Assembly (NCBI RefSeq): GCF_054482595.1
Contig: NZ_CM137008.1
Strand: one strand, 5' to 3'
Length of the DNA: 64,000 nucleotides
The position numbers and the translations under genes are program-made. The notes beneath the pieces are model-generated. The model was given only the letters and a program-made list of their open reading frames with translations, did not search any database and had not been told where the DNA came from. Within the stretch, counting starts at the first letter, position 1, and the number at the start of each line of letters is the position of its first letter. Below are positions 25,660-64,000 of this stretch, piece by piece.

Positions 25660-26724
25660 ATGAAAAACGCCACATGCTTAACTGACGATCAACGCTGGCA
25701 ATCTGTCTTAGCCCGCGACCCGAATGCCGACGGCGAATTCGTTTTCGCCGTGCGCACCACAGGCATCTTTTGCCGTCCGTCTTGCCGCGCCAGACATGCC
25801 TTGCGGGAAAATGTCTCCTTCTACGCAAATGCCAGCGAGGCACTCGCCGCCGGATTTCGCCCCTGCAAACGTTGTCAGCCAGACAAAGCCAATGCCCAGC
25901 AACATCGGTTGGATAAAATCACCCACGCGTGTCGACTGCTGGAACAGGAAACGCCTGTAACGTTGGAAGCCTTAGCCGACCAGGTGGCGATGAGTCCATT
26001 TTATCTACATCGGTTGTTTAAAGCGACTACCGGAATGACGCCTAAAGCCTGGCAACAGGCCTGGCGCGCTCGCCGTTTGCGCGAATCGCTGGCGAAAGGG
26101 GAGAGCGTGACGACGTCTATTCTTAACGCCGGATTCCCCGACAGCAGCAGTTACTACCGCAAAGCCGATGAAACGCTGGGCATGACGGCTAAACAATTCC
26201 GTCACGGTGGCGAAAATCTGGCGGTGCGTTACGCGCTGGCTGATTGTGCGCTGGGGCGTTGCCTGGTGGCAGAAAGCGAGCGGGGGATTTGCGCGATATT
26301 GCTGGGCGATGATGACGCGACACTAATCAGCGAGTTGCAGCAGATGTTTCCCGCTGCCGACAACGCGCCTGCCGATCTGACGTTTCAGCAACATGTGCGT
26401 GAAGTGATCGCCAGCCTCAATCAACGCGATACGCCGCTGACGTTACCGCTGGATATTCGCGGCACTGCTTTTCAGCAACAAGTCTGGCAGGCACTGCGCA
26501 CGATACCTTGCGGTGAAACCGTCAGTTATCAGCAACTGGCTAACGCCATCGGCAAACCGAAAGCGGTACGGGCCGTTGCAAGTGCCTGTGCCGCCAACAA
26601 GCTGGCTATCGTTATACCCTGTCATCGGGTAGTACGCGATGATGGATCGCTTTCAGGTTACCGCTGGGGCGCGTCGCGCAAAGCGCAACTGCTGCGCCGC
26701 GAAGCTGAGAATGAGGAGAGGTAA
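25660..26724 (+). CDS. ada: Bifunctional regulator / O6-methylguanine-DNA methyltransferase Ada
   Basis: 354 aa; N-terminal Cys4 (CRPSCRARHA...CKRC), AraC-type HTH, C-terminal PCHRV active site. Confidence 0.96.
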   Translation: MKNATCLTDDQRWQSVLARDPNADGEFVFAVRTTGIFCRPSCRARHALRENVSFYANASEALAAGFRPCKRCQPDKANAQQHRLDKITHACRLLEQETPVTLEALADQVAMSPFYLHRLFKATTGMTPKAWQQAWRARRLRESLAKGESVTTSILNAGFPDSSSYYRKADETLGMTAKQFRHGGENLAVRYALADCALGRCLVAESERGICAILLGDDDATLISELQQMFPAADNAPADLTFQQHVREVIASLNQRDTPLTLPLDIRGTAFQQQVWQALRTIPCGETVSYQQLANAIGKPKAVRAVASACAANKLAIVIPCHRVVRDDGSLSGYRWGASRKAQLLRREAENEER

Positions 26725-27374
26725 TGTTGGATCTGTTTGCCGATGCTGAACCGTGGCAAGAGCCACTGGCGGCTGGTGCGGTAATTTTACGGCGTTTTGC
26801 TTTTAATGCTGCGGAGCAACTGATCCGCGATATTAATGACGTTGCCAGCCAGTCGCCGTTTCGCCAGATGGTCACCCCCGGGGGATATACCATGTCGGTG
26901 GCGATGACCAACTGTGGGCATCTGGGCTGGACGACTCATCGGCAAGGTTATCTCTATTCGCCCATTGATCCGCAAACAAATAAACCGTGGCCCGCCATGC
27001 CGCAGAGTTTTCATAATTTATGTCAACGTGCGGCTACGGCGGCGGGCTATCCAGATTTCCAGCCAGATGCTTGTCTTATTAACCGCTACGCTCCTGGCGC
27101 GAAACTGTCGCTGCATCAGGATAAAGACGAACCGGATCTGCGCGCGCCAATTGTTTCTGTTTCTCTGGGCTTACCCGCGATTTTTCAATTTGGTGGCCTG
27201 AAACGTAATGATCCGCTCAAACGTTTGTTGTTGGAACATGGCGATGTGGTGGTATGGGGCGGTGAATCGCGGCTGTTTTATCACGGTATTCAACCGTTGA
27301 AAGCGGGGTTTCATCCACTCACCACCGACTGCCGCTACAACCTGACATTCCGTCAGGCAGGTAAAAAAGAATAA
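26724..27374 (+). CDS. alkB: Alpha-ketoglutarate-dependent dioxygenase AlkB
   Basis: 216 aa; start overlaps ada stop; LHQDKDE Fe-binding HxD motif. Confidence 0.96.
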   Translation: MLDLFADAEPWQEPLAAGAVILRRFAFNAAEQLIRDINDVASQSPFRQMVTPGGYTMSVAMTNCGHLGWTTHRQGYLYSPIDPQTNKPWPAMPQSFHNLCQRAATAAGYPDFQPDACLINRYAPGAKLSLHQDKDEPDLRAPIVSVSLGLPAIFQFGGLKRNDPLKRLLLEHGDVVVWGGESRLFYHGIQPLKAGFHPLTTDCRYNLTFRQAGKKE

Positions 27375-27449
27375 AAATAAGAATTATTATTGCTGTGCGC
27401 GCGAAGATGTTTAAACTGCGGGCTGTAATTCATTGTCCGGGTTTTCTGC

Positions 27450-29093
27450 ATGGAACTTCTTGTACTTGTCTGGCGGCAGTATCGCTGGCCATTTATCAGT
27501 GTGATGGCGCTAAGCCTCGCCAGTGCGGCTTTAGGCATTGGCTTAATTGCTTTTATCAATCAGCGCCTTATCGAAACGGCGGATACCAGTCTGCTGGTGT
27601 TGCCGGAGTTTCTGGGATTATTGCTGCTGTTGATGGCAGTCACTCTCGGATCGCAACTGGCGCTCACCACTTTGGGGCATCACTTCGTTTACCGACTGCG
27701 TAGTGAATTTATCAAGCGGATTCTGGATACCCACGTCGAGCGCATTGAACAACTCGGTAGCGCCTCGTTGCTGGCGGGATTAACCAGCGATGTGCGCAAT
27801 ATCACCATTGCTTTTGTGCGTCTGCCGGAACTTGTGCAGGGGATCATTCTCACTATCGGTTCCGCGGCGTATCTGTGGATGCTGTCGGGCAAAATGTTGC
27901 TGGTAACGGCTATCTGGATGGCGATCACCATCTGGGGCGGTTTTTTGCTGGTGGCGCGGGTGTACAAACATATGGCGACCCTGCGTGAAACCGAAGACAA
28001 GCTGTACACGGATTTTCAAACTGTACTTGAAGGGCGCAAAGAGCTGACTCTGAACCGGGAACGCGCCGAGTATGTGTTTAACAACCTCTACATTCCTGAT
28101 GCGCAAGAGTATCGCCATCATATTATCCGCGCAGACACCTTCCATCTTAGTGCCGTGAACTGGTCAAACATCATGATGCTGGGCGCTATCGGCCTGGTGT
28201 TCTGGATGGCGAACAGTCTCGGTTGGGCTGATACCAACGTTGCTGCGACCTATTCGTTGACGCTTTTATTCCTGCGTACGCCGCTGCTTTCGGCGGTTGG
28301 CGCATTGCCGACGCTGCTGACGGCGCAGGTGGCGTTTAACAAGCTGAACAAATTCGCGCTCGCGCCTTTCAAAGCAGAGTTTCCGCGCCCGCAGGCGTTT
28401 CCCAACTGGCAAACGCTGGAGCTGCGTAACGTGACGTTTGCTTATCAGGATAACGCGTTTTCCGTTGGTCCGATTAATCTCACCATCAAACGTGGCGAGC
28501 TGCTGTTTCTGATTGGCGGCAACGGTAGCGGAAAATCGACGCTGGCGATGTTGTTGACGGGCTTGTATCAGCCACAAAGCGGCGAAATCTTGCTGGATGG
28601 CAAACCTGTCAGCGGCGAACAACCGGAAGATTATCGCAAACTGTTTTCGGCAGTGTTTACCGATGTCTGGCTGTTTGATCAACTGCTGGGGCCGGAGGGT
28701 AAACCCGCTAACCCGCAACTGGTTGAGAAGTGGCTGGCGCAGCTGAAAATGGCTCATAAGCTTGAGTTAAGCAACGGGCGTATTGTTAACCTGAAGTTAT
28801 CAAAAGGGCAGAAAAAACGCGTGGCGCTGTTGCTGGCGCTGGCAGAAGAACGCGATATTATCCTGCTGGATGAATGGGCGGCGGATCAGGATCCACACTT
28901 CCGTCGTGAGTTTTATCAGGTGTTGCTGCCGCTGATGCAGGAGATGGGTAAAACTATTTTCGCTATCAGTCATGATGATCATTACTTTATCCACGCCGAC
29001 CGCCTGCTGGAAATGCGCAACGGGCAACTTAGCGAGCTGACGGGCGAAGAGCGCGATGCCGCTTCGCGTGATGCCGTTGCCCGGACGGCATAA
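27450..29093 (+). CDS. yojI: ABC transporter YojI (peptide/microcin J25 efflux)
   Basis: 547 aa; N-terminal TM domain, Walker [10 protein letters not shown], signature LSKGQKKR, Walker B ILLLDE. Confidence 0.93.
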
Positions 29094-48654: not shown

Positions 48655-50406
48655 TCATTCTAATGCCTTCTCAATGTTTGTATTTATTTCTGATAAACTA
48701 TTAATTACACCGTCAAATACAAAATCAAGAGCGTTACTATAACCAATTGCTAAAGTAGCTGAATCAAATCCTAGTTTTGCTAAATGCTCAATTGATTTGT
48801 TTACTGCTTCATGAGCTTCAGCATTTCTTAAATCATTATTTATAAAAAACGATGCCACTTTTTTATTTTGAGTTTTAAAATCTGCAAATTCTGTGGCGTG
48901 CTTAAGTACAGATGAGTCTTCATTCTGTTCAATAATTGGCTCGATAAGGTTAAGTAATGATTGAAGTAGTTTCAGAGTTTGGAATTTTTCGATGTCTGAT
49001 TTATTAACACCCATTGCAATTAATAATTTTTTTAAAGAGCCTGATTTAATCTTATTTAAAATCTCATTAATAGTCTTACATCTATTCAAAAAATCCGGTT
49101 CTTGCATGTCATTTGGCGCAACAAATGCTAGCTTCTGCAATACTGGATAGTTAGAGATTCCTTCTGATTCTAACTCTGTGCGATTAATTTCTAAAATGTC
49201 TGCATTGGATAAAGTAACACCAATACTTCTACCAAGTGCTACAAGATTATCGCTAAGTCTTGCTAGTTCTCTAGCGAATTTAAATGTTTTAGATACAATA
49301 TGTTCTCCGCTTAAATCATTTTCAGTGATTTGGTTTGGATCCTTAGCATAATCAAAAACATGATAAACCTCCTCTTCAGGAATTCCTCGATACAGCTCAT
49401 AAAACGGAATTCTGACTAAGTTTCTTCCAACCCTGATGCAATCCCTAAAGGACCATTGTCCACCGTAGCTTGGAGCAACCCTATAAGAATAGCCGTCATA
49501 AAATGGAATAGCATCATATGAAGAATCTTTTTCATATTTAGTAAGGAAAGAGTCATTAACCAAGACATATTCATTGTTTCTGATGTCTTTGGCTCTTGAA
49601 CTCGTCATAGGAGTATCATATCCCGGCCATATTAATTCATCTATATTTAATTTTTTACAAAGTTCAGGCTGAACAGATTGTACACTTCCCCATGCTTGCA
49701 ATAATATATTGTCCCCATTATCTACTATCTCAAAATCTATCCAAGGCAAATCAAACTTGAAATGTTTTGACCCAGACAATAAGTTAATTACTTCCGTCGT
49801 TCTTTGAATACGTGCTTCATAGTAAAAAACACGTACACCAACATAATTTCTCATCCAGAGGTATTTTCTTAGATAATCATTACGCATTGTCCATTTTACA
49901 TCTTTATTACTTCTAAAGTAATACTCGCTTGACACATCCCCTTGTGCGACTCCATAATCGGGCAAGCTTACCTCATCGAAAATGACTTTTTGCTCAGTGT
50001 CACCTATAAGTCTGGGTTTTAGACCAAGCATCATCCATACATCTTCAGCTAAAAAAAATGAAAAGTGAGAACTATCACCCCAAGAAGCTACAATATACTT
50101 ATAACCTGAAATTGATAAACTATAATCTCTTGCTCCGCCTTTAGACCTACAGTCAGGAGTCGAAAATGAAACTAAACCATTAGTAGACTCCTGGAGAACT
50201 TTGATATTATTGATATCTTCTTGTGGTACGGTAGCCATTGTCATATGAGCACACTCATGATTATCTTTAAAAAGATTTTTTTCGTATCTATGTGTGACAA
50301 TGACCTCTTTCTGTGGATTAGTAATATCCTCTATAGATAATAAATCTTTAAGACCTTGAGGGATCTGATCTACTGGTAAAGGTAATTGTGATATATAGTC
50401 AATCAT
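48655..50406 (-). CDS. Hypothetical 583-aa cargo protein (no TM, no recognised NTPase motif), C-terminal Rx4H (HEPN-like) motif; candidate defence/abortive-infection gene
   Basis: Long clean ORF, visibly AT-rich, own ~320-bp AT-rich upstream region, located between att core and int. Confidence 0.7.
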   Translation of the reverse strand: MIDYISQLPLPVDQIPQGLKDLLSIEDITNPQKEVIVTHRYEKNLFKDNHECAHMTMATVPQEDINNIKVLQESTNGLVSFSTPDCRSKGGARDYSLSISGYKYIVASWGDSSHFSFFLAEDVWMMLGLKPRLIGDTEQKVIFDEVSLPDYGVAQGDVSSEYYFRSNKDVKWTMRNDYLRKYLWMRNYVGVRVFYYEARIQRTTEVINLLSGSKHFKFDLPWIDFEIVDNGDNILLQAWGSVQSVQPELCKKLNIDELIWPGYDTPMTSSRAKDIRNNEYVLVNDSFLTKYEKDSSYDAIPFYDGYSYRVAPSYGGQWSFRDCIRVGRNLVRIPFYELYRGIPEEEVYHVFDYAKDPNQITENDLSGEHIVSKTFKFARELARLSDNLVALGRSIGVTLSNADILEINRTELESEGISNYPVLQKLAFVAPNDMQEPDFLNRCKTINEILNKIKSGSLKKLLIAMGVNKSDIEKFQTLKLLQSLLNLIEPIIEQNEDSSVLKHATEFADFKTQNKKVASFFINNDLRNAEAHEAVNKSIEHLAKLGFDSATLAIGYSNALDFVFDGVINSLSEINTNIEKALE

Positions 50407-50728
50407 TATAATTTATGCCTTCTATGCTCAGTATTAAATTAAATATTAAATCGAAGTCATCCCCTTGGCAACCTAAATCGTTTGCTGCTAGTACTTCAGT
50501 GTAAGATTAATTATGCAATAGTTTGCAATTGAAATATCTTAAGCTGTAGAAAAATCAATCATACTGATACCTTTTACTTAAGTTTCACTCCTAGGCATGA
50601 TGAACGCTTCCTCAAGATACAGTATTACGCTATGCCTGCAACTTTCACTTGTGGCATAGTAAACCTTTCAATTTAGGTTTAGCCCTGTATAGTAGTAATG
50701 CACGCTTCAAATCTGAGCTAATAAAATT

Positions 50729-59720: not shown

Positions 59721-60083
59721 TTGTGGAGAAAGTTGATGCGTGATATGTATGAAGTAATGGATCGTTGGGGAGCTTGGGCTGCTTCAGACAATAGCGGAGT
59801 GGACTGGCAACCGGTAGCCGCTGGCTTCAAGGGACTTTTACCTCATGGCAAAAAGTCCCGGATTCAGTGTGATGATGACGAAGGCATTATGATAGACAGT
59901 TGTGTGGCTCGGTTGCGTAAATATAGGCCTGAAGAATATGAGCTAATCATTGCTCACTTTGTTATCGGTATCTCATTACGCACTATTGCGAAGAAGAGAA
60001 AATGCTCTGATGGGACTATAAGAAAAAAGTTGCAAGCTGCATTGGGATTTATTGATGCAGTTATATATATAATACATGGGTAA
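59721..60083 (+). CDS. Late-gene antiterminator Q (QuuD-type)
   Basis: 120 aa; DRWGAWAA...AAGFKGLL...KSR.QCDDD...CSDG... closely parallels QuuD-family Q proteins. Confidence 0.85.
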   Translation: MWRKLMRDMYEVMDRWGAWAASDNSGVDWQPVAAGFKGLLPHGKKSRIQCDDDEGIMIDSCVARLRKYRPEEYELIIAHFVIGISLRTIAKKRKCSDGTIRKKLQAALGFIDAVIYIIHG

Positions 60084-60090
60084 TTTATTA

Positions 60091-60109
60091 GACGGCCATA
60101 TTGGCCGTC
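60091..60109. terminator. Palindromic hairpin GACGGCC-ATATT-GGCCGTC between convergent Q and the antisense cassette
   Basis: Perfect 7-bp inverted repeat overlapping the cassette stop codon; no strong U-run. Confidence 0.4.
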
Positions 60110-61295
60110 AGCTAAATAAATATGTAATAGCATAAGGTGTAAGTAAAAAGTAGAATCTAAATGTAAGATATAAGCCACATAAAACTATAATTCCTAATGA
60201 GGCAAAAACAACTTTCTGAACAAGCAATCTTGTGGTTAAACTATCAAATGTATCCTTTATATCTTCGTAAATAGCCTTGAAGTTATATTCTGCTTGTTGT
60301 TTTTTATGATTTAACTCATCATTTATTGCTGTTAAAGTTTGCCATTGATTAAATAGAACAAATATAATCATAATAGTGAAGAACAATGCACCCAACACTA
60401 CAGCTGTGTTTATTAATGCTTGACTATCCCAACCATTAGCCTGCTTCATTTGAGTCGCAACGATAATTGTTGCGACGGGGATACCTAATATCTGATTTTG
60501 TATGTCACTGAATACTTTATGTATTTTCCCCATCTCTTCTATTTTGGCTACTCGTAACTGATCTAGTATTTTCTCGTAAGAAAAACCAGAAACGAATACT
60601 TTGTATCCTTTTTGATAACTTTCATAAAGTTGTCCTAAATCCCTTAACATGAAGGAAAAAGAGGTTTCTTTAGTTTTAGATTCACATGATGATTTTATAC
60701 TACTTGCTAAAATAGTAAGTTTTTGATCTTTATGCGTATCTTCTGCAAAGTTTGCGATCAAATTATGAATCAGATCTCCATTAACATTCATAAGATCATC
60801 GCTAGAATAATTTACTGGAATTTTTAGTACGTTGGATTCGACGAATACCAATTCAAAATTTGTTTCATCTAAATAAGCAGAACAATCTTTGAATAAAGTA
60901 ATTAAGCTCAAAACATCTCTGTACTTGGATATAATAGCAGGCGACTTTTTATCCCTGTTGTGATAATTAAGTTCGATTATAAAGAAGTTACTGGCTTCCT
61001 TTATCCTATTTTTAGGATTTTTTAAATACTCATTAAAAGAGAAATGTAGCTGCCCCAATCGTAATTTGGGGGGGGTTATATGTAAGGTTATAGTTTGGCC
61101 TAACTCAATGTTGCCAGATTCAAGGGTGATGCCAAAATCATGGGGATTCTCTGTGATATCGTTGATGATGTCACAGAGCTCCTCGTTTGAAAGAATGAGT
61201 GATGCTTCAGATAGGGTACCTGCAAATGTAGCGGCCTTGTAAATAGTCACTAAGTCTTTGAAGGTTCTCTGGTTTTTACTGCTCATCCTCTTCAC
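60108..61295 (-). CDS. Hypothetical 395-aa protein with two C-terminal TM helices; downstream gene of antisense two-gene moron
   Basis: Clean AT-rich ORF; hydrophobic segments ALINTAVVLGALFFTIMIIFVLF and VVFASLGIIVLCGLYLTFRFYFLL; overlaps upstream gene by 20 nt. Confidence 0.75.
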   Translation of the reverse strand: MKRMSSKNQRTFKDLVTIYKAATFAGTLSEASLILSNEELCDIINDITENPHDFGITLESGNIELGQTITLHITPPKLRLGQLHFSFNEYLKNPKNRIKEASNFFIIELNYHNRDKKSPAIISKYRDVLSLITLFKDCSAYLDETNFELVFVESNVLKIPVNYSSDDLMNVNGDLIHNLIANFAEDTHKDQKLTILASSIKSSCESKTKETSFSFMLRDLGQLYESYQKGYKVFVSGFSYEKILDQLRVAKIEEMGKIHKVFSDIQNQILGIPVATIIVATQMKQANGWDSQALINTAVVLGALFFTIMIIFVLFNQWQTLTAINDELNHKKQQAEYNFKAIYEDIKDTFDSLTTRLLVQKVVFASLGIIVLCGLYLTFRFYFLLTPYAITYLFS

Positions 61296-62310
61296 CTAAT
61301 TCTGATAAAATCTCTGATCTTAGCGTATCCGGAATCTCGGTAAGTATCAATTTATCGTTTTCTGAATCATAAAGAACGCTGCCATCATGCAAGGCCGCAC
61401 GCTCGAATTTCAGAGACCAATGTTTGGACTTTCCTTTGAAACTAACAAGCCCACGTATAACGTTGCCATCAGGCACGAACCCATCAGAGAACTCCAGATC
61501 GTCATTGGTTAACTTTTCAACTAACAACTCAGGAGCAGTTGGCCATATCTCGTTTGCAAAAATTTGAGTGTCGAAAGTTTCACCAGAACGATTTAAATTT
61601 TTTAATTTTTCATGAGCCTTATTTAGGAACTCTTCACGTGCCTCTGGTTCAAAACCTCTTTCAGTAGCAAATTCTAAAAGTGCATTCCGTAATTTTGTTG
61701 TTTCTTGTTTGGCAATTAGAATATCGTTGCAACCTAAAAACTTTTTGAAATAACCTGCTACTGAATTTTGCCCCTTTAGAAAGCTAATATATCTCTCTTT
61801 GCCATTCTGGCGCCCAGTTAAGTCAATTCGTCCCGCTACTCGAAGTTTAGCAATGTCTAGATATTCACTTTCTTGAATTTCAAAATCGTGGACTGAAGAG
61901 CCAACTGCTGAAGTTAGGATTGCAACCATCAAATAATGATTTCCATTTACCTCATTATGGGCAATTATTACATAACCACCAGTAGACATTGATTCATCAT
62001 CGGCTCTGGCTTTTAAATGATTGATCATTCGGATACTAGTATCATAAAAACTATGTGTTTTATTTACGAAATAATCATCAACGATATTACCCATAGGGTA
62101 ACTATCGCGGTCATCTTCAAATTTCCCATATCCTTTACCTGCTCTCCCAGAGTACCTTTCAGTAAGTGCGTTAGAGAGGTCTTTTGATGCTTGCTGAACA
62201 GGTTTTTCTGAAGGACAAGGAATAATGGTGGCTAACCCCTGTTGTTCCTTGTTCATAATGTGAACAATAAACTTATGAGTGATATTAGTGGGGGTCGCTG
62301 ATGCAGTCAT
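61276..62310 (-). CDS. Divergent NdpA/YejK-family (NA37) nucleoid-associated-like protein, prophage-encoded
   Basis: 344 aa; blocks GGYVIIAHNEV..YLMVAIL, GRIDLTGRQNGKERYISFLKGQ..VAGYFKKFLG parallel host YejK ([51 protein letters not shown]); RBS AGGA upstream. Confidence 0.75.
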   Translation of the reverse strand: MTASATPTNITHKFIVHIMNKEQQGLATIIPCPSEKPVQQASKDLSNALTERYSGRAGKGYGKFEDDRDSYPMGNIVDDYFVNKTHSFYDTSIRMINHLKARADDESMSTGGYVIIAHNEVNGNHYLMVAILTSAVGSSVHDFEIQESEYLDIAKLRVAGRIDLTGRQNGKERYISFLKGQNSVAGYFKKFLGCNDILIAKQETTKLRNALLEFATERGFEPEAREEFLNKAHEKLKNLNRSGETFDTQIFANEIWPTAPELLVEKLTNDDLEFSDGFVPDGNVIRGLVSFKGKSKHWSLKFERAALHDGSVLYDSENDKLILTEIPDTLRSEILSELGEEDEQ

Positions 62311-62426
62311 AACAACATCCTTTTAATGGTTTTGAACAATTGGTGTTGATAATACTTCAAAAAATACTAATGCGTACGCAAAAAATACAGTACTCTGTTA
62401 AGAGTGGTTACTTCGCCACACAGCTT

Positions 62427-62456
62427 AAACCCGCCGTTGAGCGGGTTTTGTCGTTT
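62427..62456 (+). terminator. tR'-like Rho-independent terminator upstream of lysis genes
   Basis: AACCCGC-CGTTGA-GCGGGTT hairpin followed by TTGTCGTTT. Confidence 0.6.
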
Positions 62457-62600
62457 CTGGGGCTGGGGATTCGTTGGTCCTGGTCTATTCCGCAGTTATC
62501 CATTGGTTCGGCTTCTTTGACGTTTCCGCTTCTAATTTGCTGTACATGATGTTCCCTCAATTTGCACCTGCTGTATCAGCGAGGTGAGAGATAACTACAA

Positions 62601-62927
62601 ATGCCTCATAACCCAAATACCTGGCTGGAGTTGGTCCAGAGCTGGTGGCGTGGAGACACACCACTGGGCGCAGTGATTATGTCGATCGTTATGGCTGGCT
62701 TGCGCATTGCCTATTTTGGCGGTGGTGGTGGCTGGAAGCGAAAAACGCTTGAGATTTTACTCTGTGGCGCTCTGACGCTGACATTTGCATCCGCGCTTGA
62801 GTATGTCGGATGGCCTAAATCACTATCTGTTGCCATTGGTGGTGGGGTGGGGCTGATCGGTGTCGATGCTATTCGTGGGGCTGCAATGCGAGTAATCGGT
62901 AACAAGTTTGGTGGCTCTAAGGAGTAA
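62601..62927 (+). CDS. Holin (class I, S-like)
   Basis: 108 aa, three hydrophobic segments, Gly-rich, immediately upstream of endolysin. Confidence 0.8.
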   Translation: MPHNPNTWLELVQSWWRGDTPLGAVIMSIVMAGLRIAYFGGGGGWKRKTLEILLCGALTLTFASALEYVGWPKSLSVAIGGGVGLIGVDAIRGAAMRVIGNKFGGSKE

Positions 62928-63865: not shown

Positions 63866-64000
63866 AGCTGCCCATATCGATGGGCAACTCATGCAATTAT
63901 TGTGAGCAATACACCCGCGCTTCCAGCGGAGTATAAATGCCTAAAGTAATAAAACCGAGCAATCCATTTACGAATGTTTGCTGGGTTTCTGTTTTAACAA

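Follow-up and report, generated by a model that had tools for sequence, protein, structure and literature searches.

A YejK-like gene of an Escherichia coli prophage, coupled to a membrane-protein gene, as part of a probable anti-phage cassette carried as exchangeable cargo

A stretch of 64,000 nucleotides from contig NZ_CM137008.1 of assembly GCF_054482595.1, the window in what follows, carries a prophage in which two overlapping genes lie on the minus strand between the antiterminator Q gene and the holin gene. The first of the two (61276..62310), recognized from the open reading frame (ORF) list and from Pfam, fold and BLASTP matches, encodes a 344-aa protein with the NA37/YejK fold, WP_000127202.1, which RefSeq labels a "nucleoid-associated protein" in Escherichia coli strain 50EVA (NZ_CP138412.1) and which is called NAP here. 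The second (60108..61286), taken from the ORF list and the RefSeq coding sequence, encodes a protein of 392 aa, WP_052516676.1, referred to as the partner. The 2.6 kb around the NAP gene are 100% identical to strain 50EVA, and position 1 of the window corresponds to position 2,700,724 of NZ_CP138412.1. This pair is a divergent member of a kind of two-gene cassette known from earlier work, with validation in relatives, and had been flagged computationally before.

A sequence-only reading of the window, made without database searches, had proposed that the prophage carries a highly divergent paralogue of the host nucleoid-associated protein YejK/NdpA. This is confirmed by the full-length match of NAP to NA37 (Pfam PF04245; E 9.4e-69, residues 15-330 against positions 1-324 of the 325 in the model) and by the BLASTP alignment with the host's own YejK, which reaches 27% identity over 229 aa (E 2e-23). 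The NCBIfam YejK model also matches NAP (E 2.9e-48), as does the sequence of the solved YejK structure 9be2 in a phmmer comparison (E 1.7e-19). The AlphaFold2 model of NAP (predicted local distance difference test, pLDDT, 79.4) aligns with 9be2 in Foldseek over 340 columns, with E 4.6e-18, a probability of 1.00 and template modelling (TM) scores of 0.67/0.68. The blocks that had been picked out by eye, RIDLT, RY[IL][ST]FLKG, VA.[YF]F..FLG and a C-terminal block, are all present and collinear in the alignment with YejK (alignment A2).

NAP is not the YejK of another lineage, however. Against the YejK equivalog model NF001557 of NCBIfam it scores 164.8 bits, below the curated cut-off of 341 bits, and because of this score and the 27% identity it is placed in a paralogous clade and not among the YejK orthologues. 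The NAP gene has a GC content of 38.5%, and host yejK one of 52.5%. The ORF is intact, opening with an ATG start codon and running the full 344 aa. The gene is an old, diverged paralogue, neither a recent copy of host yejK nor a truncated or pseudogenised one, and the view that no recent duplication had taken place stands. NAP shares with host YejK the full-length fold and the conserved blocks and differs from it in being AT-rich and horizontally mobile. It differs also in its genetic setting, since NAP comes with a coupled membrane partner in every case, and host yejK is monocistronic, next to rplY and yejL.

The partner has a soluble region of about residues 1-266 and a hydrophobic C-terminus, in which the helices at about 288-313 and 350-384 are the only two strongly hydrophobic segments of the protein by hydropathy. 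In its AlphaFold2 model (pLDDT 79) there is an N-terminal alpha/beta domain of about residues 1-180, then a helical region at 186-266, and then a long helical hairpin that contains both hydrophobic segments. The best-conserved stretch, residues 227-281 (GYxxFVSGFSYxKI...EEMGKIHKxFSDIQNQILGIPVATIIVATQMK), lies directly before the first membrane helix. A profile search at a threshold of E 1e-3 or better finds 1098 clusters at 50% identity in the partner family, nearly all of them of 380-420 aa, and the protein belongs to PHROG 5023. A Pfam scan of the partner gives no significant family, and Foldseek comparison of its model with the PDB gives no match with E below 0.7 and so no specific solved relative. 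On this build the partner is proposed to be a membrane effector.

The stop codon of the NAP gene and the start codon of the partner gene overlap by 11 nt (61276..61286, minus strand; ATGAGCAGTAA as read from the sequence), with GGTGAAGAGG a little way upstream, which indicates translational coupling of the two genes. There is an alternative GTG start of the partner at 61295, which would give 395 aa. The operon has a leader of about 40 nt (62311..62350, minus strand) with AAGGA 8 nt 5' of the ATG.

The pairing holds in the relatives as well. It was followed in 39 viral loci of IMG/VR that encode a partner homologue, one of which is cut at a contig end. In 38/38 testable loci the partner gene is immediately preceded, on the same strand, by an NA37 gene, and in 36 of these 38 that NA37 gene overlaps the partner start or ends no more than 22 nt before it; the gaps in the two most distant loci are 242 and 384 nt. 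The identities of NAP and of the partner drop together across these loci (88%/78%, 51%/40%, 24%/25%). In diverged copies both ORFs are open, with a non-synonymous divergence (dN) of 0.08-0.32 and saturated synonymous sites, which indicates strong purifying selection on both genes; because of the saturation no numerical dN/dS is given, and the L027 partner is left out of these comparisons. The same pair is recovered starting from either protein, and it occurs in a Gallionella locus beside ParD and PemK genes, in a Mu-like phage of Klebsiella immediately ahead of the holin, in a Cupriavidus P2-like prophage and in an Actinobacillus Mu-like prophage. In an integrase island of Pseudomonas aeruginosa (locus L053, 6330-8749) the pair adjoins a pair of genes for an AAA_15/AAA_21 ATPase and an HNH nuclease, which we take to resemble Septu. 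In Xenorhabdus budapestensis (locus L006, 4211-6017) the NA37 gene is split into pieces of 247 aa and 97 aa while the partner gene is intact; evidently a membrane protein without a whole NAP is tolerated in that genome.

These observations bear on the function that had first been put forward, that of a phage nucleoid protein which acts by itself, interfering with phage DNA on its arrival, or sensing it, through binding to DNA or to gyrase/topoisomerase IV. The fact that the NA37 fold is retained would be in keeping with such a role, as would the interaction with topoisomerases that has been reported for E. coli YejK. Against it, the NAP gene is never found alone in its clade, and the overlap and the co-divergence argue that NAP and its partner are one functional unit. 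Action of NAP on its own is therefore highly improbable, and a link between NAP and gyrase or topoisomerase IV finds no support in the present analysis. The idea of a lone nucleoid protein has to be given up in view of the translational coupling to a 392-aa membrane protein and the invariance of the pairing in relatives. Part of the suggested role survives, since the guess that NAP senses phage infection agrees with published work on such proteins, while the stand-alone action does not fit a protein coupled to a membrane protein.

The pair is carried as exchangeable cargo. The sequence is homologous to that of sister prophages up to 60035/60052, within the final codons of Q, and again from 62351-62366 on, and these breakpoints define a cargo of about 2.3 kb (60053..62350) that contains only the NAP and partner genes, the leader and the last Q codons. 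The GC content of the cargo is 35.3%, against 50-53% in its flanks. The cargo is present in 15 of 5426 complete E. coli genomes, of which 486 have most of the holin-side flank. On the left the slot is bordered by Q (59721..60083, plus strand), and on the right by a lambda-family holin gene (62601..62927, plus strand), followed by lysozyme and Rz genes, all from the ORF list and annotation. Because the left junction lies inside the last Q codons, each cargo brings its own C-terminus of Q.

The slot between Q and the holin is a hotspot of cargo exchange, in which the cargo is always on the minus strand (window 60036-62365; compared with loci L008, L010, L011 and L012). In sister prophages the same position is taken by the Kiwa genes KwaA/KwaB, by a pair matching PDC-M53A/B of PADLOC (E 1e-30 and 1.7e-54), by a KAP-type NTPase matching PDC-S20 (E 4.5e-177) or by an SDH-family Clp-fold protease. 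Like the pair described here, Kiwa consists of two genes, for a membrane protein and a soluble protein of about 300 aa, and in a sister prophage it lies in exactly this slot and in this orientation; the order of KwaA and KwaB is reversed, however, relative to NAP and its partner. Homology with Kiwa, considered in view of the shared slot and weak Foldseek matches to KwaB, was rejected, since hhalign gives a probability of only 0.4% for NAP with KwaB, a DUF4868 protein, and 0.1% for the partner with KwaA, and the Foldseek match of the NAP model to KwaB is not significant (E ~1, TM 0.2).

To the right of the cargo, a terminator scan finds a terminator-like hairpin on the plus strand (62427..62448) followed by TTTTGTCGTTTCT. 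The arms of this hairpin are AAACCCGC and GCGGGTTT, with a T-run after them. The 90-nt segment 62359-62449, which includes the hairpin, abuts the stop codon of Q in other lambdoid prophages, for example in strain TUM10008. The hairpin is probably the late-leader terminator (late leader and tR'), and from the position of the segment in these other prophages we infer that the cargo probably lies between Q and the late promoter and leader, outside the late transcript. At the left end an 8-bp perfect GC-rich hairpin, GACGGCCA-TAT-TGGCCGTC (60091..60109, read from the sequence), lies where Q and the partner gene converge and overlaps the stop codon of the latter. A T-run is absent on both strands, and the terminator scan does not report the hairpin; because of the missing T-run it is not called a terminator.

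The position beside the lysis genes raises the question of whether the pair serves the phage itself, by compacting or silencing prophage or host DNA with the help of a membrane anchor, or by modulating the timing of lysis. The pair is found immediately before the holin both here and in Mu-like phages, and PHROGs files NAP under DNA metabolism. A role of this kind is nevertheless quite unlikely. The late genes lie on the strand opposite to that of the cargo, and the cargo is apparently upstream of the late-leader terminator, which puts it outside the late transcript. It is strongly AT-rich foreign DNA, it is found in only 15 of hundreds of E. coli prophages that share the backbone, and in others Kiwa, PDC-M53 or PDC-S20 takes its place. 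The pair also occurs outside phages, in integrase islands near toxin-antitoxin and defence genes.

The published system to which the pair can be linked by sequence is DS-1 (D390) of DefensePredictor, in which an NA37 protein that carries a zinc-ribbon extension, WP_000355468.1, is followed by WP_000150292.1, a protein of 404 aa with C-terminal membrane helices (PMC13092281). NAP aligns with DS-1A at 25% identity (BLASTP, E 3e-10) and the partner with DS-1B at 28% (E 4e-7), and the partner profile matches DS-1B in hhalign over 277 columns with a probability of 91.7% (E 7.8e-7). By these comparisons NAP and its partner are remote homologues of DS-1A and DS-1B. The arrangement is the same in both, with two overlapping or adjacent genes in E. 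coli, the NA37 gene first and then one whose product, of about 400 aa, is soluble in its N-terminal part and has membrane helices at the C-terminus. The differences are that the identities are low and extend over partial lengths, and that the N-terminal zinc-ribbon extension (about 40 aa, CxxC...CxxC) is found only in DS-1A and is missing from NAP in alignment A2. NAP is also nearer to YejK, at 165 bits, than to DS-1A, at 56 bits. Protection by DS-1 has been replicated in MG1655, and WP_000127202.1 itself appears in Table S10 of the DefensePredictor study, at log-odds of 9.14 and under the label "Predicted novel defense gene" (PMC13092281).

A second description of such systems is that of PANGU, in which YejK-like nucleoid-associated proteins are encoded in bicistronic operons with varied effectors; in type II the nucleoid-associated protein Pag2A is combined with a membrane protein, Pag2B, whose N-terminal domain binds the nucleoid-associated protein and whose C-terminal domain is a membrane domain (bioRxiv 10.64898/2026.04.06.716658). 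For the type II system of E. coli, PANGU-Ecu, both genes are required, neither gene nor the two together are toxic, and the phenotype is abortive (bioRxiv 10.64898/2026.04.06.716658). Upon infection a fusion of green fluorescent protein to Pag2A leaves the nucleoid, Pag2A binds the N-terminal domain of Pag2B, which the authors call an acidic DNA mimic, with a dissociation constant of 19 nM, and T4 evades the system through mutations in denA (EndoII) that prevent degradation of the host DNA (bioRxiv 10.64898/2026.04.06.716658). How Pag2A activates Pag2B, and how the membrane effector acts, are given as unknown by the same authors (bioRxiv 10.64898/2026.04.06.716658).

The locus described here has exactly the architecture of type II PANGU. 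In both there is a gene for a nucleoid-associated protein in an operon with a second gene (PANGU uses a criterion of a gap under 40 bp, and there is the 11-nt overlap here), and in both the effector, here a putative one, has an N-terminal soluble and a C-terminal membrane domain (helices 288-313 and 350-384 in the partner). Both are linked to defence genes, here through the slot shared with Kiwa, PDC-M53 and PDC-S20 and through the Septu-like neighbour in P. aeruginosa, and both occur in E. coli and are spread across the Proteobacteria. The N-terminal domain of the partner is mildly acidic, with a strongly acidic DNA-mimic surface not evident from its composition, and carriage as prophage cargo in the lambdoid slot between Q and the holin is a context absent from the preprint, whose text never uses the word "prophage". 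The pair may belong to the PANGU-Ecu subfamily, to DS-1 or to a third one.

An overlapping two-gene operon with a small candidate toxin active on membranes, flanked in Gallionella by ParD and PemK genes, might also be taken for an addiction module, in which a membrane toxin restrained by NAP would stabilize the prophage or island in the manner of toxin-antitoxin systems. This is very unlikely, given that the genes of the tested relatives are harmless to the cell, singly or combined, and are both needed for defence. The broken NA37 gene beside an intact partner gene in Xenorhabdus is hard to square with an essential antitoxin, and at 344 and 392 aa the two proteins are of unusual size for a type II toxin-antitoxin pair.

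That the cassette has an anti-phage role of some sort is held with considerable confidence, and it is probable that NAP is the sensor half of a two-gene abortive-infection cassette, carried by the prophage as exchangeable cargo for the lysogen, with a full mechanism like that proposed below. By analogy with type II PANGU and DS-1, a dimer of the YejK-like NAP would sit on the host chromosome until a lytic phage degrades the host DNA, whereupon NAP would lose its substrate and leave the nucleoid. Once free, NAP would bind the membrane partner, translated along with it, at the soluble domain of the partner's N-terminus, and the partner would then damage or depolarize the inner membrane and so stop the infected cell before the phage finishes. 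Every functional step at this locus is inferred; the anti-phage activity, the requirement for two genes, the abortive phenotype, the relocation of the nucleoid-associated protein and the nanomolar binding of the effector would all carry over from the literature on relatives.

Several points weigh against the complete form of this mechanism. With the DS-1 equivalog models of NCBIfam (NF053868 / NF053869), NAP matches DS1_1_antiphage, "nucleoid-associated anti-phage protein", at E 2.8e-15 and 56.2 bits against a cut-off of 330, and for the partner the match to DS1_2_antiphage has E 1.5e-19 and 70.3 bits against a cut-off of 315; these low scores place the pair in a different subfamily, in which the function could have shifted. 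PADLOC v2 gives no match for either protein, from a database that predates DS-1 and PANGU. The likeness to type II PANGU is one of architecture, and the mechanism of PANGU rests on one preprint. DNA binding by NAP is assumed, and the basic stretch RVGRK, which follows FLKG in host YejK, is missing from the NAP clade in alignment A2. The net charge of the N-terminal domain is -5 in the partner, with a family median of -9 and -8 in DS-1B, and its acidic fraction is about 14%, all of these being values of composition. Lastly, a sigma-70 consensus scan of both strands of 62311-62600 finds no site, and there is no convincing -35/-10 pair by eye; the operon promoter is probably in, or across, the conserved backbone to the right.

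Some of these points would suit a cassette of the same defensive kind with another trigger or output, in which NAP is displaced by a DNA mimic of the phage, by an anti-nucleoid protein or by the phage DNA, or in which the partner blocks the entry of DNA as in superinfection exclusion. A subfamily about 25% identical to DS-1 that fails the equivalog cut-offs, a nucleoid-associated protein that lacks the basic loop of YejK, a weakly acidic N-terminal domain and a partner fold without a specific solved relative all leave room for this, as does the step from Pag2A to Pag2B that the PANGU authors leave open. On the other side, the two types of PANGU, which have unrelated effectors, respond to the same trigger, as seen from the T4 denA escape mutants, which suggests that sensing of this kind belongs to the NA37 scaffold itself. 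A cassette with another trigger or output is rather unlikely.

A related suggestion, which is doubtful, is that the NA37 clade of NAP, widespread and borne by prophages, with more than 1000 partner clusters and without the basic loop of YejK, is a mechanistically distinct branch. NAP would then be a decoy of the abundant host YejK, would detect phage factors that target YejK or other nucleoid proteins rather than the integrity of the chromosome, and would gate a new membrane channel, CorA/ClyA-like in outline. A temperate phage that keeps such a system outside its own late transcript would not trigger it by its own induction.

The surroundings of the prophage include other features. The order in the window is rcsC-ompC-nap-ccm-narP-yejO, then an integrative island and then the prophage, which ends at tRNA-Pro. 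The map given in the sequence-only reading is correct, in that tRNA-Pro, yejM, yejL and yejK come after the prophage, with host yejK 29 kb from the phage gene. This nearness is a by-product of the integration of the prophage at tRNA-Pro, and a functional link between the NAP gene and host yejK was rejected for that reason. The autotransporter gene yejO (window 26393-28984) is annotated as a pseudogene and has an internal stop. The integrative island between yejO and the prophage (window 29300-50400; L002 29299-44277, L001 1-10407) has three or four integrases, a relaxase and an ABC-three-component system that matches PDC-M68A/B of PADLOC, with an LmuB-like ATPase. It also encodes several large proteins without a family match (682, 347, 419 and 583 aa), in DNA of 35-46% GC at 45-51 kb of the window. 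The 583-aa ORF (48656-50407, minus strand), which has no PADLOC or NCBIfam match, stands alone between two integrase genes in the stretch of lowest GC in the window (35-40%).

Within the prophage the Rz gene is followed on the opposite strand by iss, a gene for a lipoprotein of increased serum survival (window 63898-64000; L001 23898-24191), which is a second moron of this prophage. Beyond the window, at the junction of the prophage with tRNA-Pro, there is a gene with a DUF262 domain beside an IS3 element and tail-fibre remnants (L003 2705-5716). DUF262 is presumably the domain type of GmrSD-like restriction enzymes, and this junction is likely to be another position for defence cargo.

The finding is less novel than the sequence-only reading supposed, as pairs of a nucleoid-associated protein and a membrane protein are validated defence systems (DS-1, PMC13092281; type II PANGU, bioRxiv 10.64898/2026.04.06.716658); the concept and the relatives have been published, and no new question is opened. 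For annotation, where a prophage gene for a "nucleoid-associated protein" is followed by one for a membrane protein of about 390-410 aa that lacks annotation, the two should be read as a defence pair, and the partner family, with more than 1000 clusters and no Pfam entry, deserves a family model. The locus shows that this class of system travels as exchangeable cargo, in the lambdoid slot between Q and the holin, before the holin of Mu-like phages, and alongside Kiwa and the candidate PDC systems. If the mechanism is that of its relatives, as is probable, it is a natural example, borne by a prophage, of the new class of defences in which a nucleoid protein watches over the integrity of the chromosome.

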